From an uncultured Actinomycetes bacterium (GTDB lineage: Bacteria; Actinomycetota; Acidimicrobiia; IMCC26256; PALSA-610): a stretch of DNA of 64,000 bases. The position numbers were made by a program, and so were the translations under genes. Below are positions 2,567 through 59,481 of the stretch, one piece after another; position 1 is the stretch's first letter; the number at the start of each line of letters is the position of its first letter. The notes beneath the pieces were generated by a model that made no database searches, had not been told where the DNA came from, and saw only the letters and a program-made list of their open reading frames with translations. The stretch spans positions 140-64,139 of the forward strand of contig CAWFFF010000012.1 of assembly GCA_963814995.1 (NCBI GenBank), in the 5' to 3' direction.

Positions 2567-3583
2567 GGTGAGTGCGGTGCAAGCACCGCTCGTCGAACAT
2601 CATCGCGTCGCCGGGCGCGAACTCGGGAACGACAGTAGGGGTCTCGGCCGCAATCTCGGCGACCAGTTCGTACGAGATCGAATGCGGACTCATAACCCCG
2701 TCGACCGGAAGGACGTCGGGTATGCGCTTGGGGACCAACTCCAGTCCCGGGGTCGGACGGTCGCCGCCGCACACGGACAGGGCCACCCAGCAATTCATCG
2801 TCCGCACGGCCGGGTCGAGGAACGACCCGTCCTGATGCCAGGCGACGAGGTTGTACAACGGAAGCGACCGGCGCAGCGTCGACTTCTGCAAAGAGAAGAA
2901 CGGTCGCTCACCGAGGTGGCCGGCGATCGCCGGGATGACGCGGGCTTGCTCGAGCTCGTCGAATTTGCGCCGTCGCGGTCGGGGAGTCGGCCAACCACGT
3001 GCCTCCCTGGTCGGCAACTCTCTGGCGCAGTTTCGCGTCGATCTTGGGCCGACTCGTCTGCAGCGGTCGATACCAGGCCAGGTCGGCGGGTTCGTTCGCC
3101 GCCGGATCGTCTGGCGAACGAACTCGCCCGCGACGTCGGTGGACCTCCTCGATGAGGCGCACGCTGCCGCGCAACCTGTGCGTCGCTGAAAACGCCGCGA
3201 ACGATCAGGCAGCCGTGGTGAGCGACCGCGCCACCCAGAATCTCGGCTGTCAGCTCGGGCGCGGGGACTTCGGGGATTTCGCCGACGATCTCCGGAAACG
3301 GATCAGTGCTGGCAGGCGGCCAGGACTCCCGACCAGTGCCGGGGTCATAGAGCACGGCGGCGCGAGCGCGGAGGTCGATCAGCTTGACCGCGAGGGCAGG
3401 ATCGGGTCGATCACGGTTGAGCTGGGCCAGAAGATCGACGGCGTCGACGAGTCGCTCTGCGGCAGTGAGCTCGGCGACGAGCGTCAACGCGTTCTCCGTG
3501 CCGATCGGACATACGTCCCCCCTCGCCTCCCGGACGGCAGAGATGGTACTTGCGTGACGTAGCGCGTCACGAGGTGTGCGCAT
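2472..3583 (-). CDS. PhyH-family Fe(II)/2-oxoglutarate dioxygenase, split over three frames as assembled
   Basis: The C-terminal frame (2472..3017) has WHQDGSF ... CWVAL ... DAMMFDERCLHRT, a PhyH-type His-x-Asp...His context. The N-terminal part (ATG at 3583, 1 nt after the upstream stop; ELTAEILGGAVAHHGCLIVRGVFS) is in another frame. Frame changes lie near ~3165 and ~2990. Confidence 0.6.
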
Positions 3584-3584
3584 T

Positions 3585-4415
3585 TCACCGACGCGGGGCT
3601 CCACGTTGCACCGATTCGAGCAATCCGAAGTGATCCACGTAATTGTCGGCAATACGGAACGTCTCCGGATCGATCACCGCGGGTCCCCGTCGAATCGTCG
3701 CCCAGAGATTGCCGACTCGGATCTCCGACACGATGTCGCCGGATGAGGCGCGTACGAGCAACAACTCGATCAGGAGCGGGCTCAGCGGGGTCGTCAGCGC
3801 ATCGGCATTACCCAACGCCCCTCCAAGGTCCGCGAAGAGATGGGCCGAGTTCCAGTCTTCGATGACGTAGACACCGCCCGGGCGCAAGTACGGAAAAAGT
3901 GTCTCGAACGAGCTCGTCGTCTCGGCCAAGAGATGCGACGCGTCGTCGATGACCAGGTCGAGAGGATCGTCGCCGAACTGTTCGCCAACGATCTGAGCGA
4001 GTCGCGCTCGATCGGCTTGATTCACTCCGTAGACCGGATGAACCATGTCAGCGAGCCCTCGCTCGTCGATCAATCGGGCCAGCGCGTCCACCGGCGTCGC
4101 GTTCAGCTCCACCGCGACGAGCCGCCGAGGACGGGCCAGGAGCGCCAAGAGTGCGGTACTCCCTCCGGACGCCACGCCAAGCTCGACGATGGCTCCTCCT
4201 TCGAAGCTCCGGCACAGGTCCATGTAAAAGTCGAGCTGTTCCTTGGATTTCAAGATGCAGAAGCGCTCGACCGTGCTTTCCCGGAACGCCGAAACGAACT
4301 CGACACCGTCGATCGAGAAGGTGTGGCCTCCGAAGAGCCCGCCGTCAATACTCACGGATCGCCGGCAGGTCTTGAAGGTCATGGCCGAACGCGTCCGCGA
4401 CGTAACGGCCGACAC
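3585..4415 (-). CDS. Class I SAM-dependent methyltransferase (CmcI/Methyltransf_24-like)
   Basis: VELGVASGGSTALLA (SAM-binding loop), LVIDDASH and PGGVYVIEDW fit the class I fold. The stop lies 1 nt before the next ATG (operon). The ATG at 4382 is an alternative start. Confidence 0.7.
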   Translation of the reverse strand: MSAVTSRTRSAMTFKTCRRSVSIDGGLFGGHTFSIDGVEFVSAFRESTVERFCILKSKEQLDFYMDLCRSFEGGAIVELGVASGGSTALLALLARPRRLVAVELNATPVDALARLIDERGLADMVHPVYGVNQADRARLAQIVGEQFGDDPLDLVIDDASHLLAETTSSFETLFPYLRPGGVYVIEDWNSAHLFADLGGALGNADALTTPLSPLLIELLLVRASSGDIVSEIRVGNLWATIRRGPAVIDPETFRIADNYVDHFGLLESVQRGAPRR

Positions 4416-5366
4416 GCGTCCCGGCGCCGATCGATTCCATGAGCCGAGTGAGCGGGACCGCGCCGGCCGTTACACCCGCGGCTGCCCCGTGCAGCGCCTC
4501 GGTCAGACGGTTGATGGGGTCCAGGTTGCAACCGCGACACACCGGTTCACCGCGTTGCGAGATACGCCGATTTTGCCCCCACGACATCGGCAAAGCTGCG
4601 CTCGAACACGCTGCCGAGCGGGGTCTGCTTCTCCCAGTCGGAGCTACACAGATAGTACTGGCCGTCGTAGCCGACGACGAGGTACAAGAACGGTGCGGCA
4701 CACATACCGCCGCCCAGCTCGCGATCGAGTCGGGCGCGAGCCGCAGCGAACTCCGGAAGAGCCTCGATCTCCGGGGGGTCGACGAAGAGCGAACCCGCCT
4801 GGTTGAGCACGTCGTAGCTGATGGCGCGATTGATTCCACGGTCCCGCCAGAACTTGCGCATCCGATCGACGTGAGCAGGGTCACCGCGGTGGTCGACGAC
4901 GACCACGACGGTCTCACAGCGTCCACGCGCCATCTCGTTGAAGCGCACGACGTTGTCGAGGGTCCTCGCGAAGGGGAGCCCGTAGATCTCCTCGTAATCG
5001 GCGCGCTCTTCTCCGGCATTGACGCACACCTGCTGCACTCCGGCATCGAGAAGCTCGCATCCGTCAGCGCGCGTCCAATAGGGAACCATTGGTGTCGACG
5101 GTAACCCTGAGCCCCGCGGCCCGACTCTGGCGCACATAGTCGGGCAGATGTTCGTTCAAGAGTGGCTCGCCCGATCCACAAAAGCTGATCGTCACGTCGG
5201 GATCGGGAAGGTCGGCCACCCTCGCGCGGAACTCGATCACGCGTCCCAGCACCTGCCCGAACACGTCCGGCGGCATGAGTCCTTCGTGCGGCGCCCGATC
5301 CCTCGGACAGAAACGGCACGCGGCATTGCACCGGCCCGCTACCTCGAGATCGACGACCGTAGCCAT
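4345..5366 (-). CDS. Radical SAM / SPASM-like enzyme, paralogue A (two frame changes as assembled)
   Basis: MATVVDLEVAGRCNAACRFCPRD carries the CxxxCxxC cluster motif, in the frame of 5064..5366. The middle is in the frame of 4547..5137. The C-terminal EPVCRGCNLDPINRLTEAL is in the frame ending at 4345. The gene is collinear along its whole length with the intact paralogue 10113..11141. The breaks lie near ~5068 (GC-dinucleotide run) and ~4560. Confidence 0.7.
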
Positions 5367-5467
5367 GTCGCCAATGCCTCCGACCGCCTTACCCTCGACC
5401 TCGACGCTTCGGGGCGACGGTAGGCAGCCCCTGTACGTCGTGTGGCCGACAGACTACATTCGGTGCC

Positions 5468-6163
5468 GTGGAATTCAAGGCGGCCGCAACGGATGCGACC
5501 ATCACGCGGGAGCAGGCCGCCTTCTTCAGAACATTTGGGTACTTGAAGCTTCCCGGCGTGTTCAGCGGAGAGATCGGTGAGATCTCGGCCGCGTTCGACC
5601 AGTTGTTCGAGGAATTCGAATCGTCGCGAGTCGATATGTCAGGAGTCGCGATCCACGGGTACGGAGAGCGAACGATGATTCCGGCATTCGTCGACCGGCA
5701 CCCCGACCTGGCTCGTCTGCGCACGGACCCCCGAATCTCGGGAATCGTCACGCCGCTGCTCGGCGACGCCGCGGAGTACAGAGACAGCGACGGCAACATC
5801 TTCTCGTGCGACACCGAGTGGCACTGCGACATCTTCGGAGCGCCGATGAAGATTCAACACCTCAAGATCTCGCTCTATCTCGATCCCGTCAGGGCCGAGT
5901 CCGGCGCGCCGAGAGTAATTCCCGGAACAAATCACTCACAGAGTGAATATGCACGCTCGCTGCGTAGCTCGTTCGGCGAGAACATTAGCCACGTCGAGGA
6001 CGTCTATGGCGTCGTCGCCCGAGACGTACCGAGCGTCGTCCTGGACTCCGATCCCGGTGACGTCCTGCTCTGGGACTATCGGACCATCCATGCCAGCTAC
6101 GGCGGCGGTCCGCGGCGCCGACTCATCACCATGAACTTCCGCGTGCCGGCGGGCGCCGAGTAG
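5468..6163 (+). CDS. PhyH-family Fe(II)/2-oxoglutarate dioxygenase
   Basis: Intact 231-aa ORF with a GTG start. FFRTFGYLKLPGVF, WHCD, PRVIPGTNH and LLWDYRTIHAS fit the phytanoyl-CoA dioxygenase family pattern. Confidence 0.75.
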   Translation: MEFKAAATDATITREQAAFFRTFGYLKLPGVFSGEIGEISAAFDQLFEEFESSRVDMSGVAIHGYGERTMIPAFVDRHPDLARLRTDPRISGIVTPLLGDAAEYRDSDGNIFSCDTEWHCDIFGAPMKIQHLKISLYLDPVRAESGAPRVIPGTNHSQSEYARSLRSSFGENISHVEDVYGVVARDVPSVVLDSDPGDVLLWDYRTIHASYGGGPRRRLITMNFRVPAGAE

Positions 6164-6212
6164 CTCGCCCGCGAACCTCTCCTCGATTGCAGACGCCGGA
6201 CCTCACGTTTGC

Positions 6213-6343
6213 GATCACGTTCCGTGGCGTGGTCATGCTTCGCTCGACCGCCAAGTCTGCGGATCGACGTTGCTCTCGCCGCTCTCGGAGAGTAGCCAAG
6301 GCCACGTGGATACGCCCCGAAACGCACGCATCGGAACGTGATC
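6213..6343. repeat. 12-bp perfect inverted repeat (GATCACGTTCCG / CGGAACGTGATC) with 107-nt spacer in the leader of the exporter operon
   Basis: Arms read directly at 6213-6224 and 6332-6343. The repeat lies in the 230-bp non-coding gap upstream of 6394..6846. Confidence 0.5.
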
Positions 6344-6393
6344 ATTGGCCGTGGAGACCGTCTAATCTGTAACCTCGACCCGAGGGAGGTTCG

Positions 6394-6846
6394 ATGCCGT
6401 ACGTAATGATGCCGGTGCCCGAAGAGCATGTCGAGGCGGTCATGCAGTTCGTCCTGCGGGCAGTTGCGCGGGCTTCCATCAAGCCCTGGGATGCCGAATC
6501 GGTGGCGCAGATATTCGAAGAAGTCGACGAGTCGACGAGGTCACTCCTCGCGTTCGTAGCGCGCGCCGCCCTCGAGAACGGTGAGCTGGCCGATGTCGAC
6601 GCGGCACGAATGTTGCAGATCACTGTTCGTGAGGTCGCAGGGATCATGAACGAGCTCGTGGCCCTCACCCGGGGCGCCGAGCGGGCCAACCTGATCAGCA
6701 GCCGGACGTTTACGGAAAAGCTCCCGAATGGCCGCTCGAAGAGCAAGCGCGTCTTCCTGATGGAGCCAGAGATCGCAGCGTTCGTAGGCGCGGCCGAACA
6801 GGCCGAGTTGCGTGGCGTGACCAACTTGCCGGATGCAAGCGGGTGA
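6394..6846 (+). CDS. Hypothetical protein (150 aa), translationally coupled to the ABC exporter ATPase
   Basis: GAGGGAGG SD 5 nt before the ATG. The stop overlaps the GTG start of the next gene (GTGA). No family recognised. A possible HTH-like segment is DVDAARMLQITVREVAGIMNEL. Confidence 0.55.
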   Translation: MPYVMMPVPEEHVEAVMQFVLRAVARASIKPWDAESVAQIFEEVDESTRSLLAFVARAALENGELADVDAARMLQITVREVAGIMNELVALTRGAERANLISSRTFTEKLPNGRSKSKRVFLMEPEIAAFVGAAEQAELRGVTNLPDASG

Positions 6847-7652
6847 CCGCGACGACAACCGGGACGGGCGTCGGCGGCTCGGACACACCGGTGCCGCCGT
6901 CGATCGAGGTCGAGCACCTCTCGGCCTCGTACCGGGTCCGGATCGACTCCGTCAATCTCGCATCTGACGTTCGACGACTGCTGCTGCGTCAGGGAGCGGC
7001 GTCAGATCGCTTGATTCCGGCACTGCGCGACGTGTCGTTCAACGTTCGCCGCGGATCTGTCCTCGCCGTCATCGGCCGCAACGGCGCAGGGAAATCGACA
7101 CTTTGCCGTGTGATCAGCGGTGTCCTCCCACCGGAGCAGGGTCGTGTCGTCGTGCGCGGCCGCCTGAACCTTCTCACCCCGGGCATCGGCTTCAGTGACG
7201 CGTTGACCGGCCGCGAGAACATCACGCTCGGCGGGCTGGCCAGCGGACTTTCGCCTGAACGTCTCGCGGAGCTGTCCGACGAAATCGGGCGGTTCGCGCA
7301 ACTCGACGAGTATCTCGACCTACCGATGCGGTCGTACTCGGGCGGGATGCGTATGCGCCTCGCGTCGTCGATCGCAGTCTTCTTGGACCCCGAGATCCTC
7401 CTCATCGACGAGGCGCTGACCGGAGGCGACGCCGCCTTCAACGAGCACATCGCCGAGAGAACCGCGCAACTTATCGGTGCCGGTCGCACGATCGTGCTCG
7501 TCACTCATGGCCTCAGCTCGGTGAGGATGATGGCCACAGAGGCGCTCTGGTTGCATCAGGGCCGGGTCGCGGAGTTCGGAGACCCCGACGAGGTCGTCAG
7601 CAAGTACATGCGGTACTGCCGCATCGAATCGCTCGGCATGGACGATGTGTGA
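6843..7652 (+). CDS. ABC transporter ATP-binding protein, Wzt/TagH-type glycan exporter (NBD only)
   Basis: Walker A GRNGAGKST, signature YSGGMRMRLA, Walker B LLIDEAL and H-loop VTHG. At 269 aa there is no C-terminal carbohydrate-binding extension. Confidence 0.85.
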   Translation: MTATTTGTGVGGSDTPVPPSIEVEHLSASYRVRIDSVNLASDVRRLLLRQGAASDRLIPALRDVSFNVRRGSVLAVIGRNGAGKSTLCRVISGVLPPEQGRVVVRGRLNLLTPGIGFSDALTGRENITLGGLASGLSPERLAELSDEIGRFAQLDEYLDLPMRSYSGGMRMRLASSIAVFLDPEILLIDEALTGGDAAFNEHIAERTAQLIGAGRTIVLVTHGLSSVRMMATEALWLHQGRVAEFGDPDEVVSKYMRYCRIESLGMDDV

Positions 7653-7676
7653 CGGCGATCGAGTGAGGTACGCCAG

Positions 7677-8525
7677 ATGACGGATTCCGTCGAATACAGC
7701 GATGTCGAGTACGTGTTCGAACCTCACTCCCGGGACATGCCGGTGCTGAGCGAGTACCTGGCGGCGCTCGGGGAGCGACGTCAGTTCATGATGGAGCTTG
7801 CCCGCGCCGACTTGCGCAGCCTTCGGTCGAGCACCGCTCTGGGCAATGTCTGGAGCGTGCTCGATCCGCTCTTCCAATCGGGCATCTACTTCTTCTTGTA
7901 CGCCGTACTGCGCAACGGCTCTTCGACCCAGCTCCAATTCCTGCCCGTCCTGCTCGGCGATTTCTTCCTCTTCGCGTTGAGCACCTCGGCGATCAACGAC
8001 GGTGGCGGATCGATCAAGCGGGCCAAAGGCCTGATGCTGAACTCGACATTCCCGAGAGCGCTGCTCCCCGTGACCGCCGTCTACAAGGCGCTGCGCAACT
8101 TCGTGCCCAGCGCGTGTGTGTTCGTCGTGCTCTTCCCGTTGCTCGGTGGAAAGGTCGGACCGGGCCTGTTCCTCCTGCCTTTGCTGTTCCTTCTCCAGGT
8201 CGCGATGAACATCGGGATCGCGCTGCTCGTGTCGACATTCGTCACGTTGATCCCCGACGCCGGCAACTTGATGACCTACGTGACACGCGTGCTGCTCTTC
8301 GCGACGCCGGTCGTGTATCCCGTAGCACTGCTGCCCGCGAAGGCGAAGCTCCTCGTAGGCTGGCAGCCTCTGTTCGCGCTGTTCTCCAGCTACCAAGCCA
8401 TCCTCGGCGGCGCCATGCCCAGCGCGGCGCTCGTCGCGCAAGCGTTGGCATGGTCTGTGGGCCTCCTTGCCATCGGTGCGCGGGTCTTCCTTCGCCACGA
8501 GCGCGAGTTTGCGATGAATCTCTGA
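7677..8525 (+). CDS. ABC-2 type transporter permease, Wzm/TagG-type
   Basis: 282-aa polytopic hydrophobic protein immediately downstream of the Wzt-like ATPase, with typical ABC-2 length and layout. Confidence 0.8.
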   Translation: MTDSVEYSDVEYVFEPHSRDMPVLSEYLAALGERRQFMMELARADLRSLRSSTALGNVWSVLDPLFQSGIYFFLYAVLRNGSSTQLQFLPVLLGDFFLFALSTSAINDGGGSIKRAKGLMLNSTFPRALLPVTAVYKALRNFVPSACVFVVLFPLLGGKVGPGLFLLPLLFLLQVAMNIGIALLVSTFVTLIPDAGNLMTYVTRVLLFATPVVYPVALLPAKAKLLVGWQPLFALFSSYQAILGGAMPSAALVAQALAWSVGLLAIGARVFLRHEREFAMNL

Positions 8526-8595
8526 CCGTACGACTCTGACTGCATGCAGTGAGACGAGCTGGCCCATCGCCGGCGCGGGCAGCTACCCTGACGTC

Positions 8596-9290
8596 GTGAT
8601 GGCGAGCACCACCGCAGATCCTGCTGAGTGCCCGGTCTGCGGCACCGTCGCTGAATCGTTCGTCGCCGCGGGCGTAAGAAGGGTGATGGCGGACCGCCGG
8701 TGCCCCACCTGCGCGTCGCTCGAACGCCACCGCGCCGTTTGGCTCTACTTTCAACAGCGCACCAACCTCTTCACCGATAAGGTGCGCATGCTTCATATCG
8801 CCCCGGAACCGGCATTGAGCCCACGGTTCGCCCGCGGTCGAACATCGACTACCTCAGCGCCGACCTCGCTTCGCCGAGAGCGATGGAGCATTTCGATATC
8901 ACAGACATTCCGTATCCGGACGAGACCTTCGACGTCATCTACGCGAGTCATGTTCTGGAGCATGTCCCTGACGACCGGCGCGCGATGCGCGAGATTCGCC
9001 GCGTCCTCCGCACGGGTGGATGGGCCGTCCTGCTCGTGCCCATGTTCGGCGCCACCACCAAAGAGGACCCGACCGTCATCGACCCGGCCGAGCGTGAGCG
9101 CCTCTTCGGTCAAGACGACCATGTGCGCCTGTACGGCCACGACGGAGAGTACGAGCGACGGCTCACTGAGGCCGGCTTCGATGTCCGAGCCGAAACCTTC
9201 GTTGCCGACCTCGGCCCGGAACGAATCCGCCGGTACCGACTCGTCAGCGGCGAGATCATCCACCTCTGCACGAAGCCGTCGGCCGCGTAG
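8596..9290 (+). CDS. SAM-dependent methyltransferase with N-terminal zinc ribbon (one frame change as assembled)
   Basis: CPVCG...CPTCASLERHR is followed by DITDIPYPDETFDVIYASHVLEHV...LRTGGWAVL (Methyltransf_11 type). Frame 8596.. switches to frame 8883..9290 near ~8838. Confidence 0.7.
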
Positions 9291-9295
9291 ATCCG

Positions 9296-10043
9296 CTACC
9301 AGTCGTTCGACGACTCGTAGCCGAGAAGTATCAGAAGCTCGCCGTAGTTCTCCTTGAAGTACGCCACATGGTCTTCGGTGAAGTGGTTGAGCCAGTCGCC
9401 CGCAATCCCCTTGCGGTAGTGGCTGGTCACGTCTTCGCGGCCGGGCGGTCTGCCCGCCATCTGCTTGAAATCACGTTTGGCGACGATGCGATCGATGCGC
9501 TCAGCCGTAAGCCCATCGTCGGTACCCAGACGAAGGAATCTGAAGATACTTGGAATCTCATCCGACGCTCCCGTCGTGATGTCCTCCATACGGAGCTCGA
9601 GCACATGCGGCTGCTCGTAGTCCCAATCAAGCATGGCTTGGAACTGAAACTTGCGGTTCTCCATCTCGAGCATGATCCCCTCATCCTCGGGCACAGACTT
9701 CAACCGCTCGCGATGCTCTTCGAGCTTGCCGAACAACGGGTGGCTATAGAGGTGCGAGAAATACGCGGAGACCACGACGTCGCGCGGATCGCGCACGACG
9801 TGAAAGCCGAGCAGATTCCCCAGCTGACGCCGCGTAGCGCTTCTCCGCGTTCATATAGCAGAGGAATGTCGAACCCGGGTCGTCGATTGCGCCAACGAGA
9901 TCTCCGTCGAAATCACGGAAGCCGTTGTATACCAACTGTTGGCGTCCGATGATCTGACAGACGTCGGCGACGATGCTCCGCATCCATTGTGTCGCACACT
10001 TGTGATGCCCGAAGTACGCAAGGAGTAGATCCTCCTCGCTCAC
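9296..10043 (-). CDS. Sulfotransferase family protein (one frame change as assembled)
   Basis: HVVRDPRDVVVSAYFSH (3'-phosphate-binding RDPxD motif) and RKGIAGDWLNHF are classical sulfotransferase motifs. The N-terminal YFGHHKCATQW is in the frame of 9744..10043. The break lies near ~9830. Confidence 0.75.
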
Positions 10044-10112
10044 GAAACCCTCCTCAAATCACACCGTCCGGCCCGTGCCACCGATGCCACAGGAAATCAG
10101 CCGCAGTTCCGG

Positions 10113-11141
10113 TCACTCGGAGAGGAGTGGTATGAGTCGTCGCGCGGGAGCGGTCGACGTACTTCCCAGCTGATGTCCGAACGCGTCCGCCATGAACCGG
10201 ACCACCGACGTTTCGTTCGTGATCGATTCCAAGAGTTCGTCGTGGTTCTCTCCGTCGGCATCGGCGTTGAGGGCCTCGGTGAGCCGGTTGATCGGATCGA
10301 GGTTGCACGTGCGGCACACCGGCTCACGAGACGAGAGGTGCGCAAGCTTGGGTCCGACGACATCCTCGAAGCTTCGGTCGAACACGCTCCCGAGCGCGGT
10401 CTGTTTCTCCCAGTCGGAACAACACAGGTAGTACTGCCCGTCGTAGCCGACGAACAGGTAGAGGAACGGTGCCGCGCACATACCCCCGCCGAGCTCACGG
10501 TCGAGCATGGCGCGAGCCGTGGCCAACTCGGGGAGAGCCTCGTACTGCATGTGGTCTACGAACAGCGAGCCGCCGCGATTCATTACCTGATAGCTGATAA
10601 TCCGATCGATCCCACGCTCACGCCAGAACGAGCGCATGTGATCGACGTGTACAGCGTCGTCGCGGTGATCGACGACGACCATCATGACCTCGCAACGTCC
10701 TTTCGCCATCTCGTTGAATCGCACGACATTGTCGAGGGTTCGTTCGAACGGGAGCTTGTATATCTCTTCGTAGTCTTCGCCCTCTTCGCCGACATTGATA
10801 CAGATCTGCTGCAAACCGGCGTCGAGGAGCTCAGTCGCTCGACGCTCGTCTAACAACGATCCGTTGCTCGATGTCGTCACCTTGAATCCCTCGGCACGAC
10901 ACATGCGCACATAGTCGGCGAGTCGGCGGTTCAGCAGGGGCTCACCTAACCCGCAGAGGCTGATCGTGACGTCGGGATCAGGAAAATCTGCGACGCGTCG
11001 GCGGAACTCCACCGCGCGGCCCAAGGTTCGAGCGAAGATCTCCGCGGACATCAGGCCCTCGTGCGGCGTCCGGTCGCGCGGGCAGAAGTGACACTTGGCG
11101 TTGCATCGGTTCGTGGCCTCGATGTCGACGACGGTCGCCAT
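10113..11141 (-). CDS. Radical SAM / SPASM-like enzyme, paralogue B (intact, 342 aa)
   Basis: NRCNAKCHFCPRD is the CxxxCxxC motif. The Cys-rich C-terminal region is CAAPFLYLFVGYDGQYYLCCSDW...EPVCRTCNLDP. GGAGGGGG SD upstream of the ATG. Confidence 0.8.
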   Translation of the reverse strand: MATVVDIEATNRCNAKCHFCPRDRTPHEGLMSAEIFARTLGRAVEFRRRVADFPDPDVTISLCGLGEPLLNRRLADYVRMCRAEGFKVTTSSNGSLLDERRATELLDAGLQQICINVGEEGEDYEEIYKLPFERTLDNVVRFNEMAKGRCEVMMVVVDHRDDAVHVDHMRSFWRERGIDRIISYQVMNRGGSLFVDHMQYEALPELATARAMLDRELGGGMCAAPFLYLFVGYDGQYYLCCSDWEKQTALGSVFDRSFEDVVGPKLAHLSSREPVCRTCNLDPINRLTEALNADADGENHDELLESITNETSVVRFMADAFGHQLGSTSTAPARRLIPLLSE

Positions 11142-11379
11142 GCGCCTCGTTCCCCCTCCACGCGAGTCTCGTCGCGAGTCTCGTCCTTACAACCCGTCGC
11201 CCACAGCCTACCTACCGCGCCGGTGTCTTGAAACAGCCGAGCCGTGGTTCAGCGTCGTACGCACCGCACACATCGGGCGGTTTGCGACCAAATTCGATGC
11301 AGCTTCGGTCAGGCTCAGGTCGTCGCCAAACGCACGGCTCTCGGGGTCCGTCCGCCCCGGTTGCACCCGAAGCCGATCG

Positions 11380-13602
11380 TCACTCGGATTCAGCAGCACG
11401 ACGGTTGATCCACGGAAACGACTCCGCCGGTTCGGCGACACCGAGCAAGCGGCAGATCGGTCCCCAGCCAGGCGATTCGTTGAGATCGATTTCGAGGAAG
11501 TTGTCGCGCCCGGCGAAGTGCTCGCGCACCCGGCGAACATGTTGATTCCACTCATCGCGCCAGGCTGCTTCGTCGACGCTCACAAAATCGCCGTGGTACT
11601 CGCCTGCTGCTCTGAGCCGGATGTTCGATTCCACGTGGCGACGGCGACTCTCGATCCAGTCGTCGACGGGACGCACCGTGAGCACGAACCGGCTCCCCGG
11701 GTACTGCTCGTCGAGGAGATCGAAGTTGAGCGAGAGCGCACGGATGTCGGAGAAGGCATCGATGTTCGGGTCGAGGCGGGAAAGCAGCGGATCGCCTGTC
11801 GCGATGCTGGCCTCGACGAGACGGCGCACCGCGGGTCCTCCCCAGTGCAGGCTCTCGCGACCGAGGATCGACAACGCCGCGTGCAGTGAGGTCGTGCCGG
11901 TCTTGTTGAGGCCGATGCCGAACACACGCGGTCGATCCGGCCGAGGATCACGTTTCGGGTTCGGCGCCCGGAAGGAACCGACGAAGTCCGTGAACTCACG
12001 GGCGTAGTACGGCGGCGCTCGATGCGGGTCGACACCATGCTTCCAGCCGTACTTGTAACGATGACCCTGCAAGAGCATGTCGACGCGAGAGTCAGTGCTT
12101 GCCGTGGTGCGGCGCGCGTGCACGACGCGAGCAGCGGGTACCGGCACGAGCTCGATGCCCATCTGCCAGGCGCGGTGCCAGTAGTCGGTGTCCTCGCAGA
12201 AGGCCGGGTTGAACCATTCGTCGAAGACCCCGACTTCGTCGTACAGAGCGCGCGAGAGCATGAAGCACCAGCCCGCCGTGCCGCCCTGATCGGGACTCGA
12301 GAACCCGAGGCCGTCGCAGTGGTCGGTATAGGGGAATGCCACTCGGCGGCCGTTCACCGCGGCTTCGTAGAGCGCGACGTCCCAACCGGGCTGGACCATG
12401 CAGTCACTGTTCAGCACTACGACGACGGGTGCGGTCGACAGACGGATGCCCGTGTTCCATCCCGTGGCGACTCCCTTGTTCTCCGGGTAGCGGTACACCT
12501 TGGCCGGGAGCAACGGGGTCGTGTGCGGCGACCCGTTGTCGACGACGACAACCTCCGTGGGAATGCGCGCGACCTCCCAGATCCGTTCGATCGTTCGGCG
12601 GGCCATGTCGGCGAGGTCGGGCGTACGACTCCACACCGGAATGGCGATGCTGAGGAGCGGTTCGATGTCCGGTCCCGTGGGCGTGTGGTCGTACGCGAGG
12701 TCGGGATCCGTGTTCTCGAACGGCTGCACGGTGGCCGGCAGGTCGGACGAGATGGCGGTTCCCCCTTCGGTTGCCCCCACCGCGCCTTTGGCGTGAAGCA
12801 GCCGGAATGTCTCGCGGTAGGCCGAATGCAGATCTTCGAGCGCGCCGGCGTCGGTGCGGCTCTTGACTTCGAGCGCGGCAACCTTGCGGCGCAGTGCGGG
12901 CTCGGTGAGGCGTTTGTCGTCCCAGAGCTTGGCGGCGTCGTCGAGCTGAAGCCGGGTCGCCATGTCGGTACCTGGATGCAGCGCGGCGATGATCGCGTGG
13001 GCCCGGCCCTTCGCCTCGGTGCGGTCGCAGAACGCGTCGAAATCGATCGAGCGCGCCATGAGACTGCGCGCCGACGCATCGTAGATGACGCGTAGCCCGC
13101 GCGGACCGAGTCTCCAGCCCATCTCGACGTCGATCGAGTAGCCGAGCCGCTGATCGTGCAGGCCGTGCCGTACCAGCAGCGAGCGCTTGCAGGAGATGCG
13201 ACCTTCCCAAAAGCCTCGCCAGTCGAGCTGTTGGCCATCGCCGAGACGCTCGTAGGCGAACATCAACCGATCGACGTCGGTGATGTAGTGCATCAACGGC
13301 GTGAGCTCGAGCTCAGGCGCCCAATCGGTGTGTCCCAGGATGGCAACGGCTTCACCCGGCTTGGCCGCGTGGGCAGCCAGGTGACGTTCGAGGTAGTCAG
13401 GCGCGGCACGATCGTCGTCGTCGAAGAACAATACGAGTGGAGCGCGCGCAAGGAACACGGCGTGGTTCTTCGCAGCACTGCGGCCGCCGTGATCAATCCG
13501 CACGCCGACAACCTGCAGACCGGAAGGCGCGGCGGCGAGAATCGCTTCGAGGTCGTCTTCCCCGGAGGCGGACGGCTTCGAGCCGTCGTCGACCACCACC
13601 AC
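11380..13602 (-). CDS. Tri-domain enzyme: GT2 + GT2 glycosyltransferase modules + C-terminal sulfotransferase-like module
   Basis: VVVVDDGS...FFDDDD and LSIAIPVWSRT...VVVVDNGS...VLNSDC are two GT-A modules. The C-terminal VFGIGLNKTGTTSLHAAL is a P-loop sulfotransferase-like module. GT2 homology (ISVLIATYERPALLRACLASF) continues upstream of the GTG at 13602 to ~13700 with no in-frame start codon, so the true 5' end is unresolved. Confidence 0.7.
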   Translation of the reverse strand: MVVVDDGSKPSASGEDDLEAILAAAPSGLQVVGVRIDHGGRSAAKNHAVFLARAPLVLFFDDDDRAAPDYLERHLAAHAAKPGEAVAILGHTDWAPELELTPLMHYITDVDRLMFAYERLGDGQQLDWRGFWEGRISCKRSLLVRHGLHDQRLGYSIDVEMGWRLGPRGLRVIYDASARSLMARSIDFDAFCDRTEAKGRAHAIIAALHPGTDMATRLQLDDAAKLWDDKRLTEPALRRKVAALEVKSRTDAGALEDLHSAYRETFRLLHAKGAVGATEGGTAISSDLPATVQPFENTDPDLAYDHTPTGPDIEPLLSIAIPVWSRTPDLADMARRTIERIWEVARIPTEVVVVDNGSPHTTPLLPAKVYRYPENKGVATGWNTGIRLSTAPVVVVLNSDCMVQPGWDVALYEAAVNGRRVAFPYTDHCDGLGFSSPDQGGTAGWCFMLSRALYDEVGVFDEWFNPAFCEDTDYWHRAWQMGIELVPVPAARVVHARRTTASTDSRVDMLLQGHRYKYGWKHGVDPHRAPPYYAREFTDFVGSFRAPNPKRDPRPDRPRVFGIGLNKTGTTSLHAALSILGRESLHWGGPAVRRLVEASIATGDPLLSRLDPNIDAFSDIRALSLNFDLLDEQYPGSRFVLTVRPVDDWIESRRRHVESNIRLRAAGEYHGDFVSVDEAAWRDEWNQHVRRVREHFAGRDNFLEIDLNESPGWGPICRLLGVAEPAESFPWINRRAAESE

Positions 13603-13685: not shown

Positions 13686-15778
13686 TCAGGACGCTGATCC
13701 GGGCGCGGTCGCGGGCTCGGGCCGTACATACGCGACGGGCCGGCGGTCGGGGTCGAGGATCCAGATCCGTCGTACGAACGCATCACCGGGGGCCCTCATC
13801 GGCAACGGCTCGCGCAGACCGACACTGAGGCTGTCGGTCAGCGTCACGGAACCGGTGCGCGTCGCACCGGCGCGTACCGACAACACCGGGACCGAAGTGA
13901 CTTCATCGATCTCGCGACCGACCGAGCCCATATGCCGCTCGGCCACGGGAGGGCCGCCCTCAGGGCCTCCGATATGGGTCGGCTGGAGTCGGTCGACGTC
14001 GAGCGCGATCTGGGTTGACACGAGCGTGTCGAGGAACCGGCTCGGCAGGATCACGTCATCGCGCACATAGACGATGAAGTCGGCGTCCTCGTCGACCGAC
14101 TCCTCGGGTGCGGAGTCCGGCCGCCAGCGCTGTTCGACGATGAGGCTCGAGCTCGAGCCCAACTCGCTCAGTAGGCCCGGTGGCGGACCCGTACGGTGTG
14201 CGACGTAGGTCCCGATCACACGTACACGGGCCGTGGGAACGGGAGCCAGCACCGGCAGCGGTGTACCGCTGCCGCCAAGGTCGTATATGACGAGATGTTC
14301 GTCGAGGTGCACGCGCCGATACTCGGTCTCCAGCCGCTCGAAGAGCTCGGGATATCGGTACCGCCAACTGAAGGCCGATTTCGGCAGGACGAAATAGCGC
14401 GCCCCCGCGCACGCTGCGCTTCGAGGTGGTTCACCGCGGCGTCTCCGTCGACGGGGTCGTACCCCGCCCATCCGCCTTCCCGTGCCTGCGGAAACGGCCA
14501 ACCCGGGTGCGACGCGAGGTCAACGAGGTCGTCGTCGCCTCCGGAGGCGACGAGCACGATCTCGCCCGGTCGTCCGATCATCTGGATCCGGCGGCGGATC
14601 ACCTGCCCCATGTCTTCGCCGTCGACACCCGTGAACCGGGTCGACTTTTCGGATCCGTCGACGATCGTCCGACCTCGTTGCGACATCACCTGATCGAGAA
14701 TGCGCCCGAATATGCCTTCCACGACCTCGACGTCGTGTCGCAGCTCGACGTGTTGCGCTCCTTCGTCGGCAAGGCGGTGCCAGAGATCGTCGTCGGTGAG
14801 CACCCGCGTCACGCCCGACGCGAAGTCGGCGGCGTCGGCACCGATGAGTGCGTGCACACCCTGGACCAAGTCGAGTCCCTCGGCCCCCACCGGCGTCGTG
14901 ACGACGGGCGTGCCGGCCATCATCGACTGGAGCACTTTGCGCTTTACTCCCGCACCGTGCAGGAGGGGAACCACGGCCAGGCGCGACTGCTCGAGGTACG
15001 GCTGAACCGAGGGAACCCAACCGATGAGGCGCACTCCTGGGGTCGCGGGGTCGATGTCCAATGTCACCTGATCGAGCCAGTTCCCCAGCACCGTCAGCGG
15101 GTGGCGCCGCAGCAACTCCGGATCAAGCAACGGCAACACCTCGGCACAGAGATACTCGACCGCCTCCCGGTTCGGGACGTGGCGGAAGTTGCCGACGAAG
15201 TACATGCCGCGGCGCTGTTCGAGGGGGTACCGGGACCGCTGAATGTCCTCGGCGAGCGGGAGCGTGAAGACCCGACCTTCGCCAAGGAAGTCGGCGAGCA
15301 GATCGCGCTCCTTGTCGGATACCGCGATTACTGCATCGGCGCCATTGTATGTGTTCAATTCGCGCGTCGCTTCGGTGCCGAAGGCGGCACCGAGCGTTGA
15401 GCGTTGCCCGAACACCCCGCGCGCGTTGCGCAGGAAGTGGATGTCCATCGAGTTGACGATGACCCGCGTGTCGGGGGAGACCTTGTGCACGAGCGGAAGC
15501 AACTCTGCTGCGGGTTCCCAGAACGCGATCAGCGCAAGATCGAAGCCTCCGGAGCGGAGGATTCGCTCAGCGGCACCGAACCCGCTGTGCGTGGCCACAC
15601 CCATTTGCCGCAGCCGGCGTGCGTGACGTTCCTCGGCCTCCTCCTCTCGGGCCAGGAACGTGACCTGCCAGCCGGCACGCAGTAGGAACTGCACGGTGTT
15701 GTCGATGTCCTGCGAGCCGCTGTCGCGGTCGAAGGCGGGCATCCGCGTATGCACGACGAGCACACGGGGCTTGCTCAT
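13686..15778 (-). CDS. GT4-family (GT-B) glycosyltransferase with C-terminal accessory domains (one frame change as assembled)
   Basis: MSKPRVLVVHT... and the GT-B C-terminal half VVPLLHGAGVKRKVLQSMMAGTPVVTT. The ATG overlaps the upstream stop (ATGA). The frame switches at a GGGGG run near ~14405 (..LEAQRARG | ARYFVLPKSAFSW..) and the ORF continues to 13686. Confidence 0.7.
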
Positions 15779-18700
15779 CCCCGGCACACTTCGACGTCGT
15801 CGCGGGCGATCAGGTAACGCCATACACCATCGCTGAGCTCGCTCGGCCGGGCCGGGCGGAGATCGAGTACGCGTTGCCACGCCGACTCGGCGAGGGGGAC
15901 CGATGCCTCGCCGCCCTCGCCCGCGACTCGGACAGCGACGATCGTGGGCTGATACATCACGGATGCGCCGCGAGCCCACACACCCGCGCACCATTCCCGC
16001 ACGAACGGGCGTCCGCTGAGCATGGGCGAACCCGCGACATCGGTCCACAAGGAACTGGCCGCCGCGACCAGACCGGGGGCCCAGCACACGGGCCGTACGA
16101 AATCGTGCCACGGCGCGCGCACGTCGGCGGACGACTCCGCGATCAATCCGAGTGAGCGGTCGGCGAAGACCGTCCCGCCCGCACCTTCGAGACGTCCGTC
16201 GGCCCGCATGATCTTGCCGGCGATTGCCGTCGTCGGATCGGCCGCGGCGAGGCCGGCCGCGGCCTCGATCACTCCCGGCAGGGGGAGCACATTGGGTTCC
16301 ACCACGACGACGACGTCGTGGTCGCCGAATGCAGACGGCATGTCGGCATCGATGTCTCCGACGTGGAGATCGGCTCCGGATGCGGCGGCACGCGCCGCGA
16401 GCTGCGTCCGCCAATTCTCGTCGCTCCCGGTCCCCGCCCACACGAGCACTCGCGCCGGCGCGGGCGATGTTCCGCCTGTTCTCTCGACGCCAGTCTGGAG
16501 ACCCTTCTCGACGCGGCGAACCTCGACGCCGGAGCTGCCCGCGGCGACCACGATCACACCGAGTGCTGCGACCCGCGAGGCTTCGGCGAGATCGTGACCC
16601 TCGTCGACAACGACGACGTCGACACTGTGGTCGAGGTACGGAAGCCGGAGGTCGTCGGGAGAGCGGAACGTGGCGAAACCGACGAGCTCGCCCGCGACGT
16701 CGAGGCTCGTCCAGTCGAGTACCGCCGGAATGTGCACCGCGCCCGCTGCGAGCCCGTTGACCTCGCCCCGCAGCGACCGCGATCCTTCGCCCGCCGCCTG
16801 CGCCATATCGAAGACCGCGCCGGCGCCCTCCTCGTCGACAACCGTGCGATACGTCCGGGCCACATGATCGCGAAGCTCGGCCTGCTGGCGGAACCAGGGC
16901 CGCGATCCCTCGGGAAGAACGAGGTAGCGATGACCGGCGAATCGGAGCGCCTCGAGGTGGGCGATGTGCGCCAGGTCGTCGGCGAACGGCCGGCCCTGCC
17001 GTGTGTGCGGGAACGTGGTCGAGCGGGGTGCGACCTGGCCGACCTCCGACGGACTCCCGGGCATCACGACGAGCCAGGAGGCTCCCGCGGGGAGCGCCGC
17101 CGCGACCATCCGGGCGTATGCATCCTTCCACTGGCGCGGGGCTGGACCCTTCGGCGTCGGTGCGGGTCTCGGCGCCGGCTCCGGCGCCGGCCGCGCAAGA
17201 GCCTGCTCCCCGCCACCGGTGGCACCACGACTCTGGAGGCGCTCGGTCGCGCGCCACGTCCGTCGAGCGAGTTGCCGGGCCGGCTTCGGGAGTCGGCGTG
17301 CGACACGCTTCGCGGCCGACTTGGGATCGGCGGCGGCGTGCCGCGCCCGAATCTGACTCTGTTGCAACGTCTTTTGTGCCGGCGGTGGCAGCCGGCCCGA
17401 CACGGACCGCGCCGCGGCGCGCGCCTTGGGAAGCGCTTTGCGTCCGACGGCCTTCACGGTCGGACCGGGTTCGGCCATCCCGCGCTGCAAGATGTTGCGG
17501 GCGCGGCGCAGCTGGAACTTTGCCGGTGCCGGGAGCTGGTCGGCGACTGCGGACGCGGCCGGCACCGCCGCCCGGCGGCCGCGGTCGACGACCTTCTTGC
17601 CCGGGCGGAGAACGAAACGACGCCCACCCCGCGCCGCCCGCCCACCCGATGCGCGTAGCCGCCTGCGGATCGGACCCGCCTCGGTCGCCCGTACCACGAC
17701 GTCGAGCCGCGATGCCGTGCTGCGGGTCCGAGCATCGATGTTCGCGACCGTGGCGCCGGTGCGATCCAGGGATTCGCTCAGGATCTGCATCGTCTTCATC
17801 GTCTCCGCCTGCAGAGACTCGACGCGCGCCGTGGCTGCCTCGCGGGTTCGCGCGACCAGGTCCTCGAGATCACGAATCTTTTGCCGGTGCTGGTTCTCGC
17901 TCGCGATTCGCTCTCGTTGGATCTGCTGCTCCAGCTCACGCACCCGCCGAACGAGCTCGGCCTCCCGGACGTTGCGCTCGGTCCGGACGTCTGCTTCCCG
18001 GGCCGCGACGTCGGCGCGCAGCTCTCGCTCGCGTTCCTGCAGCCTCTCAATCGCGTCCTGACGCTGCTCGGCGTGGCGTTCGGCCACCGCGCCGTCGAGA
18101 ATCAGCCGCCGGACCCGGCCTTCGTCGGCCGCCGGCTCCGGCGCCAAGGCCACACCGGCCTCACGGCAGAGCTCGGCATAGAGCGCGCGCAGGCTGGGGC
18201 TCGCGCCGGCGTCGACGAGCCCAACCTGGATCGTGTGGTGACGCAGGTCGGTACGCACCCGCGGTGCCGCCGCGGAAAGGCCCACGAACGCGCAGAGCCG
18301 CTCGAGCTCGATCTGCGGATCGATGAAGAAGGATTCGTAGTGCGTCACGATGCGGCGACCGGCCGGGATCAACTCCAGCGCGGTTGCGTAGTAGCGCTCC
18401 CAGAGGGTCAGACCAAGTGAATAGGAGTTCTGGTTCCTTCGCTTGAGCGAGAGCGCGACCTCGAGGGGATGGCGCACACAGATGACGAACCGGAGATCAG
18501 GCTGGAGGTCGAGCCAGTAGGCCGCAGTCAGGCAGGTACGCGGGTCCTTGAAGCCCCAGTGGTCGTGCTCGCCGAGTGTCATGAGCACGCTGCTCGCCGA
18601 GGCGGCAACATGGAGCACGCGGGGGTCGTCGACAGCCAGTGGCGGCAGGTCGGGTGGGTTGTCCCACGAGCCGCCCGTGGCTTCGAGGAGCTCGTCGTTG

Positions 18701-18843
18701 CACGCGACGATTGCCTTGTTCTCCCAGAAGCCCTCGGGGTTGTCCTCGGCCGCGTCGATCAGCTCCTCGGCACCGCTCCCGAACAGGTGCAGCCCGGAGT
18801 CGTGCAGCGCGCGCGTGATCATCGAGGTCCCTGATCTGTGCAT
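15775..18843 (-). CDS. 1022-aa fusion: sulfotransferase domain - coiled coil - basic repeats - shared domain - GT-A-like glycosyltransferase half
   Basis: (G)MHRSGTS P-loop at the N-terminus, then GFWENK, DPR and VRHPLEVALS (sulfotransferase-like). A long E/R/Q-rich heptad-like stretch follows, then RRLPKPA-type repeats. The C-terminal GKIMRADGRLEGAGG...YQPTIVAVRV is GT2-like. The start is uncertain: homology (EHGPIAITG) extends 9 codons above the ATG with no canonical start codon. Confidence 0.7.
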   Translation of the reverse strand: MHRSGTSMITRALHDSGLHLFGSGAEELIDAAEDNPEGFWENKAIVACNDELLEATGGSWDNPPDLPPLAVDDPRVLHVAASASSVLMTLGEHDHWGFKDPRTCLTAAYWLDLQPDLRFVICVRHPLEVALSLKRRNQNSYSLGLTLWERYYATALELIPAGRRIVTHYESFFIDPQIELERLCAFVGLSAAAPRVRTDLRHHTIQVGLVDAGASPSLRALYAELCREAGVALAPEPAADEGRVRRLILDGAVAERHAEQRQDAIERLQERERELRADVAAREADVRTERNVREAELVRRVRELEQQIQRERIASENQHRQKIRDLEDLVARTREAATARVESLQAETMKTMQILSESLDRTGATVANIDARTRSTASRLDVVVRATEAGPIRRRLRASGGRAARGGRRFVLRPGKKVVDRGRRAAVPAASAVADQLPAPAKFQLRRARNILQRGMAEPGPTVKAVGRKALPKARAAARSVSGRLPPPAQKTLQQSQIRARHAAADPKSAAKRVARRLPKPARQLARRTWRATERLQSRGATGGGEQALARPAPEPAPRPAPTPKGPAPRQWKDAYARMVAAALPAGASWLVVMPGSPSEVGQVAPRSTTFPHTRQGRPFADDLAHIAHLEALRFAGHRYLVLPEGSRPWFRQQAELRDHVARTYRTVVDEEGAGAVFDMAQAAGEGSRSLRGEVNGLAAGAVHIPAVLDWTSLDVAGELVGFATFRSPDDLRLPYLDHSVDVVVVDEGHDLAEASRVAALGVIVVAAGSSGVEVRRVEKGLQTGVERTGGTSPAPARVLVWAGTGSDENWRTQLAARAAASGADLHVGDIDADMPSAFGDHDVVVVVEPNVLPLPGVIEAAAGLAAADPTTAIAGKIMRADGRLEGAGGTVFADRSLGLIAESSADVRAPWHDFVRPVCWAPGLVAAASSLWTDVAGSPMLSGRPFVREWCAGVWARGASVMYQPTIVAVRVAGEGGEASVPLAESAWQRVLDLRPARPSELSDGVWRYLIARDDVEVCRG

Positions 18844-18920: not shown

Positions 18921-19676
18921 TCAGGGGAGAAAGCCGAACTTCGTAAGGATGCTGCGCGCCGAAGCGGACGCCAGGAACCTCGCGAAGTCGCTGACTCCGG
19001 CGGAGTTACCGACGGTGACGGACGAGAAGGGGAACACCAGATTCTGGTCGTCGGGAATGGAAACGAACGTGACGCCTTTGGGAACGGTCAACCCGACGCG
19101 AAACACGAGCGCGGCATCGAGCGTGCCTGCGGCGATCGCTCGCAGCGACGCCGCCTCACAGCCGGACTTCACCGTGCCCTTGGCCGGGGTGACGCCCGCT
19201 TTCGCGAGAACAGCCACTGTCACTACGCCGAAGCTGGCCTTGGCGCCGCAGACCGCGGTCCGAAGACCACTCGTAGCAGCAAACGCCTTCACGTCGGTCA
19301 CGTGATGCGGGTTCGCCACCGGTACTGCTATGACCGCGAGGTTGCGGCCGAATGACGCAACCGGCAGATCCTTCTTGGCGTCCTTGAAGATCGCGGCGTT
19401 ACCGATTGCGATCGCGGGATTTCCGGTGGCGACCGTCTTGGCCACCGCGTTGTCGGCATCCGCCGTCACGACCACGTCGCTCCCCGGATGCTGCGTCTTG
19501 TAGGTCTGGACGAGTTCGTCGACGACCGACTTCAGATCCGGGGTCGTCACAACGGAAATTGCACCACTCGGCAAGGTCGAGCCCGAAGCGGGGCTCGCCG
19601 GCTTCTTGTCGCTGCCACACGAGCTCAGCGCGAGCGCGCTCAGCACGATAGGGACTACGACCGTCCAACGCTTCAT
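18921..19676 (-). CDS. Lipoprotein, ModA-like (oxyanion/molybdate-type) periplasmic substrate-binding protein
   Basis: Signal peptide with lipobox LALSSC. The type-2 PBP pattern resembles ModA-like binders. GGGAGGG SD upstream. No cognate permease or ATPase nearby. Confidence 0.6.
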   Translation of the reverse strand: MKRWTVVVPIVLSALALSSCGSDKKPASPASGSTLPSGAISVVTTPDLKSVVDELVQTYKTQHPGSDVVVTADADNAVAKTVATGNPAIAIGNAAIFKDAKKDLPVASFGRNLAVIAVPVANPHHVTDVKAFAATSGLRTAVCGAKASFGVVTVAVLAKAGVTPAKGTVKSGCEAASLRAIAAGTLDAALVFRVGLTVPKGVTFVSIPDDQNLVFPFSSVTVGNSAGVSDFARFLASASARSILTKFGFLP

Positions 19677-21911: not shown

Positions 21912-22059
21912 CGAGCCGGCCTCCACGCCGCCACCGTATTCGACCGCGCGCGCGGCAGTGGTTTCGGGAGTTTCGCGGACCTCGCCGATGCGTTCGCCGG
22001 CGCGGTCGGGTCTCACTCTCTCGTAGGCAATCGAACCGGATGCAACACGGGAGACCGCC

Positions 22060-28749: not shown

Positions 28750-28770
28750 CCACACGAGGCCGTGTGCGCG

Positions 28771-59475: not shown

Positions 59476-59481
59476 GACAGT

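Follow-up and report, generated by a model that had tools for sequence, protein, structure and literature searches.

Twitch-like radical SAM proteins in conserved neighbourhoods with PhyH dioxygenases and sulfotransferases: two paralogues in an actinobacterial glycan locus

Among the radical S-adenosylmethionine (SAM) enzymes of known structure, the one closest in fold to the protein discussed here is BtrN, the 2-deoxy-scyllo-inosamine dehydrogenase of the butirosin pathway (PDB 4m7t). This protein, copy B, has 342 residues and is encoded by the minus strand at positions 10113-11141 of a 64,000-nucleotide stretch of DNA (the window) from an uncultured bacterium of the Acidimicrobiia; a paralogue, copy A, is located at 4345-5366 on the same strand. 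BtrN matches the AF2 model of copy B at 1.2e-11 (target TM-score 0.66), and its sequence profile matches copy B at 9e-8, in the N-terminal core only and with an identity of about 16%. According to PMC10114670, supplemented by general background on the enzyme, BtrN has a short N-terminus with the CX3CX2C motif near residue 15, as well as a twitch domain in which one auxiliary cluster is bound by a C...C...CxxC pattern, both the N-terminus and the cysteine pattern being found also in copy B, and its substrate is carbohydrate-like, not a peptide. By comparison with BtrN, the family of copy B is about 90 residues longer and is characterized by two extra C-terminal helices, an invariant CC dyad, and conserved C63 and C150; copy B is found in a sulfated-glycan context, whereas BtrN belongs to an aminoglycoside cluster.

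The same structural subgroup includes the anaerobic sulfatase-maturating enzyme anSMEcpe (4k36-4k39), matching copy B at 4e-11. The anSMEs are radical dehydrogenases with a short N-terminus. Their full SPASM domain carries 7-8 cysteines and two auxiliary clusters (PMC10452713), whereas the family of copy B has five C-terminal cysteines and no CX2CX5CX3C motif. Members of the family in Halieaceae are encoded directly downstream of a Cys-type sulfatase; no sulfatase linkage is seen in the window, and only one is present among 21 actinobacterial loci. Radical chemistry on sugar carbons is also carried out by AbmM (8wm2, 5.6e-8 by sequence), BlsE (7vob, 2e-4 by sequence and 1.8e-10 by fold), and DesII (8hzv, 2.9e-10 by fold), all of which match the generic core of copy B with 16-20% identity. 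These three enzymes belong to antibiotic clusters and catalyze decarboxylation, deamination, or sulfur-for-oxygen exchange, and nothing in this locus indicates such reactions. NeoN, which acts on neomycin C, and EpeE/YydG, which acts on peptides, are epimerases that use an auxiliary cluster and an essential free cysteine as the hydrogen atom donor; EpeE (8ai6) matches the fold of copy B at 3.5e-7. By analogy, a role like that of this free cysteine could explain the presence of the invariant extra cysteines C241 and C63 in the family of copy B.

We lean towards reading copy B as a carbohydrate-tailoring radical enzyme that belongs to a conserved module with PhyH dioxygenases, sulfotransferases, and methyltransferases. 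The gene is an intact minus-strand open reading frame (ORF), and its translation contains, exactly as cited in an initial annotation of this 342-residue protein made by a model from the letters, the motifs NRCNAKCHFCP, CAAPF, YYLCCSDW, and EPVCRTCNLDP. A Pfam scan assigns the Radical_SAM domain (PF04055) to residues 8-163, with 55.6 bits against a gathering cut-off of 29.5, and the SPASM domain (PF13186) to residues 222-280, with 33.5 bits against a cut-off of 21.5, and detects no other domains. The CX3CX2C motif occupies residues 13-20, with only 12 residues preceding it. In a 52-sequence alignment of the family, copy B agrees with 84 of the 85 near-invariant columns.

Ten cysteines are conserved among 56 sequences of the family (C13, C17, C20, C63, C150, C222, C240, C241, C276, and C279), and those of the radical SAM cluster motif, C13, C17, and C20, are invariant throughout. 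The C-terminal cysteines follow the pattern C222-x12-G-x4-C240-C241 ... C276-x2-C279, after which no cysteine is conserved. A SPASM domain is defined by 7-8 conserved cysteines that include the CX2CX5CX3C motif and bind two auxiliary clusters (PMC10452713), and the twitch domain is a shortened SPASM with 3-4 conserved cysteines and a single cluster (PMC10452713, PMC10114670). The CX2CX5CX3C motif is absent from the 56 sequences, in which only five C-terminal cysteines are conserved, and the NCBIfam SPASM model TIGR04085 scores 15.9 bits on copy B against a cut-off of 27, covering positions 1-68 of the 93 in the profile. As judged from the sequence, the C-terminal domain is twitch-like (a truncated SPASM) with an extra adjacent cysteine, C241, and one auxiliary [4Fe-4S] cluster would most likely be bound by C222, C240 (or C241), C276, and C279. 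Thus, of the initial assignment as radical-SAM/SPASM-like, the radical SAM core and the Cys-rich auxiliary domain are retained, but the comparison of the SPASM and twitch classes places the latter domain with twitch, not with full SPASM. The conservation of the C-terminal cysteines, on which that annotation had depended, is seen throughout the 56 sequences.

The AF2 model of copy B is confident (pLDDT 88.8, pTM 0.87) and consists of alternating strand and helix elements, with a β-hairpin (residues 228-237) and a helix (residues 259-271) preceding the CxxC. In a Foldseek comparison with the PDB, over 100 structures of radical SAM proteins match at E<=1e-3; BtrN ranks first and is followed by SuiB, anSMEcpe, BlsE, DesII, CteB, ChlB, MoaA, SkfB, and viperin, with identities of 14-18%. 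Sequence and profile matches in the PDB (AbmM, NifB, BtrN, BlsE, and MoaA) are limited to the N-terminal core. The basic residues R12, R22, R189, K246, K265, and R272 are invariant in the family and would be well matched to a negatively charged substrate, with a nucleotide diphosphate or a sulfate group.

Copy B has about 1000 homologues, found for the most part in actinobacteria of the Acidimicrobiia type and in marine Halieaceae, none of them with a specific name; the best 120 share 54-67% identity with it, except for the exact self-match and one fragment of 272 residues. Orthologues in species-representative genomes are found in metagenome-assembled genomes of Acidimicrobiia and other Actinomycetota, as well as in Halioglobus and Haliea (Halieaceae, Gammaproteobacteria). 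Together they form a distinct, uncharacterised family within the known SPASM/twitch group of radical SAM enzymes. The full sets of ORFs from the window and from 39 orthologue loci, 21 actinobacterial and 18 from Halieaceae, were clustered, and the clusters were annotated. The numbers of loci with each type of neighbour are as follows:

PhyH-type dioxygenase: 17/21 actinobacterial, 14/18 Halieaceae, 31/39 overall
Sulfotransferase: 9/21 actinobacterial, 15/18 Halieaceae, 24/39 overall
Methyltransferase: 5/21 actinobacterial, 14/18 Halieaceae, 19/39 overall
Glycosyltransferase: 13/21 actinobacterial, 2/18 Halieaceae, 15/39 overall
Cys-type sulfatase (CTPSR): 1/21 actinobacterial, 14/18 Halieaceae, 15/39 overall

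The most constant neighbour of the family is the PhyH protein encoded in the window next to copy A (cluster c1), with orthologues in 28 of the 39 loci. Its gene usually adjoins the radical SAM (rSAM) gene and is often divergent from it; the distance between the two start codons is 28 nt in loci L073-L074 (for example, L073 9247-10001) and, for copy A in the window, 101 nt (5366-5468), and such tight divergent spacing suggests co-regulation. The best sequence matches of the window protein in the PDB are SnoK (1.2e-6) and EctD, of which SnoK acts on a sugar C-H bond. The commonest sulfotransferase cluster, c2, is often found directly beside the rSAM gene, and its profile matches the heparan-sulfate 6-O-sulfotransferase 5t03 at 4e-14, while the methyltransferases found as neighbours belong to three types, FkbM, TylF/CmcI, and class I. 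NCBIfam gives only generic names to the partner proteins. Of the two partners whose association with the homologues the initial annotation proposed to check, the sulfotransferases are, along with PhyH, among the constant ones, but not the glycosyltransferases, present in just two of the Halieaceae loci.

In Halieaceae the genes form a fixed operon in the order PhyH, FkbM, FkbM, sulfatase, rSAM1, SnoaL-like, rSAM2, sulfotransferase similar to heparan-sulfate 6-O-sulfotransferase, and a fusion of an aldolase with a short-chain dehydrogenase/reductase (for example, L017 5000-16000). The sulfatase is a membrane-anchored, Cys-type protein, and the operon appears to lie beside what we take, from naming the housekeeping genes by eye, to be a rodA-mltB-dacA-lipB block. 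In one subclade there are two further proteins, an apparent PAP2 phosphatase and an apparent MGT-like glycosyltransferase, and these hint at a glycolipid as the substrate there. Independent metagenome loci include two to four copies of PhyH, TylF/CmcI methyltransferases, Hexapep acetyltransferases, a GT4 glycosyltransferase, a DegT sugar aminotransferase, and a fusion of Sulfotransfer_3 with GT1.

Duplication of the rSAM gene is recurrent in the tree, with an ancient pair in Halieaceae, each copy of which forms its own clade, and a separate, lineage-specific duplication in the window. In the Halieaceae copy-2 clade's grouping, the second copies from the actinobacterial loci L006 and L008 are its companions, which suggests that a two-copy module was transferred between the phyla. 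An 870-residue B12-binding radical SAM protein (cluster c16), a different radical enzyme in the same module, is present in five actinobacterial loci (L005, L006, L008, L010, and L031; for example, L008 8143-10755), and in L006 and L008 its gene adjoins the second rSAM copy.

A sugar substrate is favoured by the conserved neighbours, including the cluster c2 match to a heparan-sulfate 6-O-sulfotransferase and the SnoK-like PhyH, and the substrate of the family is quite probably a carbohydrate or a glycoconjugate. The unusual sugar chemistry proposed in the initial annotation agrees with these neighbours (PhyH in 31 of 39 loci and sulfotransferases in 24) as far as the substrate is concerned, and dehydrogenation or epimerisation specifically would be a tentative assignment of the reaction. 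In the mechanism that we propose, the reduced radical SAM cluster (C13/C17/C20) would cleave SAM to yield a 5'-deoxyadenosyl radical, which would take a hydrogen from one of the sugar carbons, either in a nucleotide-sugar or in a nascent glycan. The resulting substrate radical might then follow one of two routes. In the first, it would be oxidised through the auxiliary cluster to a keto-sugar, in a dehydrogenation of the BtrN/anSME type, whereas in the second a conserved free cysteine (C241 or C63) would quench it from the opposite face, yielding an epimer, as in NeoN and EpeE.

Several observations weigh against assigning the family to carbohydrate tailoring. The structural neighbours of copy B, with TM-scores of 0.5-0.66 and identities of 14-18%, are equally distant enzymes that modify peptides, proteins, sugars, and nucleotides, so that the fold does not select the substrate. 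No NCBIfam model reaches its cut-off in a search with copy B, the best one scoring 64.8 bits against 380; no member of the family has been characterised, and literature searches on the family found nothing. The Halieaceae loci are nearly devoid of glycosyltransferases and have the Cys-type sulfatase directly upstream of the rSAM gene, which leaves room for a protein or a small molecule as the substrate.

In the window, the module is embedded in a predicted locus for an exported polysaccharide that would be both sulfated and methylated, with glycosyltransferases and an ABC-2 exporter. The features of this locus are the following:

506-2566, plus strand: 686-residue protein with a GT1-like C-terminal domain (Pfam Glyco_trans_1_2, 3e-26)
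2472-3652, minus strand: second PhyH-like dioxygenase, cluster c9, in two frames (tblastn, 2475-2987 in frame -3 and 3191-3511 in frame -1)
3585-4415, minus strand: Methyltransf_24 (CmcI/TylF clan) methyltransferase, downstream of copy A (Pfam, 3.7e-11)
4345-5366, minus strand: radical SAM copy A, a diverged or decaying three-frame paralogue in which single nucleotides are inserted near 5066 and 4549
5468-6163, plus strand: PhyH-family Fe(II)/2-oxoglutarate dioxygenase of cluster c1, oriented away from copy A (Pfam PhyH, 6.8e-12)
6843-7652, plus strand: ABC transporter ATPase (Pfam ABC_tran, 6.8e-21)
7677-8525, plus strand: ABC-2 permease (Pfam ABC2_membrane, 3.8e-8)
8596-9290, plus strand: class I SAM methyltransferase, cluster c28, in two frames (tblastn, 8695-8820 in frame +1 and 8796-9275 in frame +3)
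9296-10043, minus strand: Sulfotransfer_1 gene directly downstream of copy B, in two frames (9296-9796 corresponds to profile positions 97-251, 1.3e-13)
10113-11141, minus strand: radical SAM copy B, an intact ORF of 342 residues with a radical SAM core and a twitch-like auxiliary Fe-S domain
11380-13602, minus strand: GT2+GT2+Sulfotransfer_4 tri-domain protein, upstream of copy B (Pfam; NCBIfam EpsD-like match at residues 2-219)
About 14216-15750, minus strand: GT1 gene (Pfam, frame track)
15775-18843, minus strand: 1022-residue protein with an N-terminal Sulfotransfer_3 domain (Pfam, frame track)
19806-22136, minus strand: Sulfatase-family protein of 776 residues with N-terminal membrane helices and a DEWPTAS Thr site (sequence)

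The window member of cluster c9 is weak for Pfam PhyH, and the representative of the cluster matches PhyH at 5e-8; the representative of c28 matches Methyltransf_11 and Methyltransf_23. The cluster of the Methyltransf_24 gene, c17, is also found in loci L007, L031, and L039. The ABC pair at 6843-8525 is a putative Wzt/Wzm-like glycan exporter. Near the N-terminus of the Sulfotransfer_1 protein, in the ORF 9744-10043, the segment GHHKCATQW resembles by eye the loop that binds 3'-phosphoadenosine 5'-phosphosulfate. The tri-domain protein is 55% identical to a protein of locus L018, and a Sulfotransfer_3+GT1 fusion similar to the arrangement at 14216-18843 is found in L073-L075. A solute-binding protein gene (18921-19676) adjoins the sulfatase-family gene. 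The G+C content of the glycan island (2000-12000) is 0.62-0.66 and that of the remaining window is about 0.69-0.73, and the lower value is consistent with horizontal acquisition. The part of the window from about 28000 to 64000 is the origin-proximal region of an actinobacterial chromosome, with DnaB (carrying an intein), an inositol-1-phosphate synthase domain, a CCA/poly(A) polymerase-like protein, DUF6049, MurJ, TrxB, a PG_binding_1 repeat protein (judging from synteny, CwlM-like), ParA, YidC, DnaA, DnaN, RecF, and GyrB, and the island is located about 45-55 kb from dnaA. An 81-nt tRNA-Ala(CGC) called by ARAGORN at 41406-41486 on the minus strand lies inside a Hist_deacetyl ORF (41124-42140, 1.4e-88) and is probably a false positive.

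The sulfatase of the Halieaceae loci raises the alternative that the family is a slimmed-down, anSME-like dehydrogenase that produces formylglycine from the Cys in the active site of a sulfatase encoded with it, which we regard as unlikely. In 14 of the 18 Halieaceae loci a Cys-type sulfatase of 670 residues (CTPSR) lies directly upstream of the rSAM gene, at a distance of about 140 nt and without a change of strand, and the gene order is conserved as sulfatase, rSAM, SnoaL, rSAM, sulfotransferase; moreover, anSMEcpe is among the top structural matches, and the short N-terminus with the cluster motif at 13-20 resembles, from general background, those of anSME and BtrN. However, a sulfatase of this type is found in just one of the 21 actinobacterial loci, the cysteines of the second auxiliary cluster (CX2CX5CX3C) are missing from the family, and a maturase in tandem duplicate would be odd. 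No anSME model is among the 25 NCBIfam matches listed, and no anSME sequence in the PDB matches at E<=0.01. In the window itself, the only Sulfatase-family protein is the one at 19806-22136, which, with its membrane helices and the Thr site, resembles not a formylglycine sulfatase but a transferase of the LtaS/EptA type whose nucleophile is Thr; a search of the window revealed no C/SxPxR motif in any credible frame, and this protein was rejected as an anSME substrate.

Less probable still is a role as the maturase of a peptide that is made by the ribosome and modified after translation (RiPP), in which copy B would crosslink or epimerise a ribosomal peptide that is subsequently decorated by the sulfo-, methyl-, and glycosyltransferases. 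Such a role could account for the Pfam SPASM match, for SuiB, CteB, SkfB, ChlB, and EpeE among the structural neighbours, and for an ABC transporter nearby in the window, but this transporter is an ABC-2 type pair and not a peptidase-containing exporter, the neighbours are sugar enzymes, and the CX3CX2C motif, starting at residue 13, leaves no N-terminal extension for a PqqD-like RiPP recognition element (no search aimed at a recognition element on a separate protein was made). ORFs of 18-95 residues were clustered around 61 rSAM genes in 40 loci, within 2 kb, and no conserved small ORF was found, the recurrent ones being only antisense or alternate-frame shadows of the 5' end of the rSAM gene; likewise, no small precursor ORF was called in L071 or L073-L075. 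A RiPP precursor as a neighbour was therefore rejected. The initial annotation had noticed no convincing precursor beside either copy, and this observation now extends to the 40 loci, in which homologues are not consistently accompanied by short precursor peptides.

The carbohydrate-tailoring role that we favour pertains to copy B, which is probably, as far as its sequence indicates, the working, standard enzyme of the family, with copy A probably not. The collinear paralogue noted at 4345-5366 is real, but it is read in three frames (5366-5064, about 5060-4547, and about 4550-4345) separated by the two single-nucleotide insertions located by the DNA alignment to copy B. After their correction, the two proteins are 69.7% identical over 333 aligned residues (BLASTP E 8e-169), with 68% in the first 100 residues, in agreement with the two-thirds to three-quarters estimated by eye, and 83.5% in the C-terminal Cys-rich part. 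At the DNA level the identity is 74.3% over 883 nt; the similarity is confined to the coding region, ending about 5 nt upstream of the ATG, which indicates duplication of a single gene, not of a block. Copy A stems from a lineage-specific duplication and occupies the ancestral position, beside PhyH. The genes surrounding the two copies, namely the Methyltransf_24 (CmcI-clan) gene (3585-4415, minus strand) and the divergent PhyH gene (5468-6163, plus strand) for copy A, as well as the tri-domain GT2+GT2+Sulfotransfer_4 gene (11380-13602, minus strand) and the Sulfotransfer_1 gene (9296-10043, minus strand) for copy B, bear out in their Pfam annotation the contexts described initially.

That copy A is a dead pseudogene, so that the pair has no joint function and the locus has one ordinary tailoring enzyme, copy B, falls only a little short of an even chance. 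At the 85 columns that are >=95% conserved in the 52-sequence alignment, copy A deviates in 12 (including T10A, N11G, T25A, L65S, R189Q, G190A, M198P, Q199E, F230V, and C241S) and copy B in one, against a family median of 0 and a maximum of 5. The copies are sisters in the tree, with the branch of copy A about 1.8 times longer than that of copy B (a ratio derived from p-distances), and two frameshifts in 1 kb exceed the rate of about 0.2 per kb in the checked housekeeping genes (Poisson P about 0.02). On the other hand, copy A retains all three radical SAM cysteines and four of the auxiliary ones, and the dN/dS between the copies, 0.19 at a dS of 1.18 that is near saturation, indicates purifying selection for most of the history of copy A. 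The frameshifts may, moreover, be artefacts, since essential genes are broken in the same assembly:

Frame-broken essential genes dnaN, gyrB, dnaB, and trxB, with consecutive Pfam domains in different frames: 59410-60575, 62108-64000, 28736-30772, and 49443-50388

In dnaN, the N-terminal and central domains are in one frame and the C-terminal domain is in another; in gyrB, the ATPase part is in a frame other than that of Toprim and the C-terminus; and in dnaB the break falls inside the intein. The assembly thus contains indel errors, and a frameshift alone is no proof of a pseudogene. For the same reason, the frameshifts lose weight as proof that the glycan island is decaying. Within the island, two frames are also found in the PhyH-like gene at 2472-3652, the methyltransferase gene at 8596-9290, and the Sulfotransfer_1 gene, amounting with copy A to five breaks in about 7.7 kb, against the rate of about 0.2 per kb given above; this excess could reflect either real decay or a consensus of lower quality, if the island varies between strains. 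For the two in-frame TGA codons of copy A (both CGN-TGA), an explanation by programmed +1 frameshifting was rejected because the P-site codons cannot re-pair, the changes are plain 1-nt insertions, and essential genes are broken in the same assembly. With roughly even chances, then, copy A is a recently inactivated or relaxed, diverged paralogue. The initial view of duplicated copies dedicated to a glycan locus holds insofar as these are true paralogues in a glycan/sulfation locus, but was overstated for the frame-broken copy A with its 12 replaced residues. Frameshifts of the kind seen in long-read-style assemblies can look like gene decay, which is a practical risk.

We can speculate, although we think it rather improbable, that this is the first type of radical SAM enzyme dedicated to the tailoring of sulfated glycans or glycolipids, working with PhyH in tandem or as its oxygen-independent counterpart, in a module that moved between Actinomycetota and marine Gammaproteobacteria. 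If so, the rSAM and PhyH enzymes would each remove a hydrogen at the same sugar position, oxidising or epimerising it before or after sulfation, in a bacterial analogue of the way in which epimerase, sulfotransferase, and sulfatase work on heparan sulfate. The tight pairing of a radical SAM enzyme, which is oxygen-sensitive, with PhyH, which depends on oxygen, the link with carbohydrate sulfation, and the presence of the module in two phyla make the family worthy of attention. Genome mining treats SPASM/twitch radical SAM enzymes mostly as markers for peptide natural products, and to our knowledge almost no enzymes of radical chemistry in sulfated bacterial glycans have been characterised. The consistent non-peptide context of this family makes it a good candidate for new radical sugar chemistry in such glycans.

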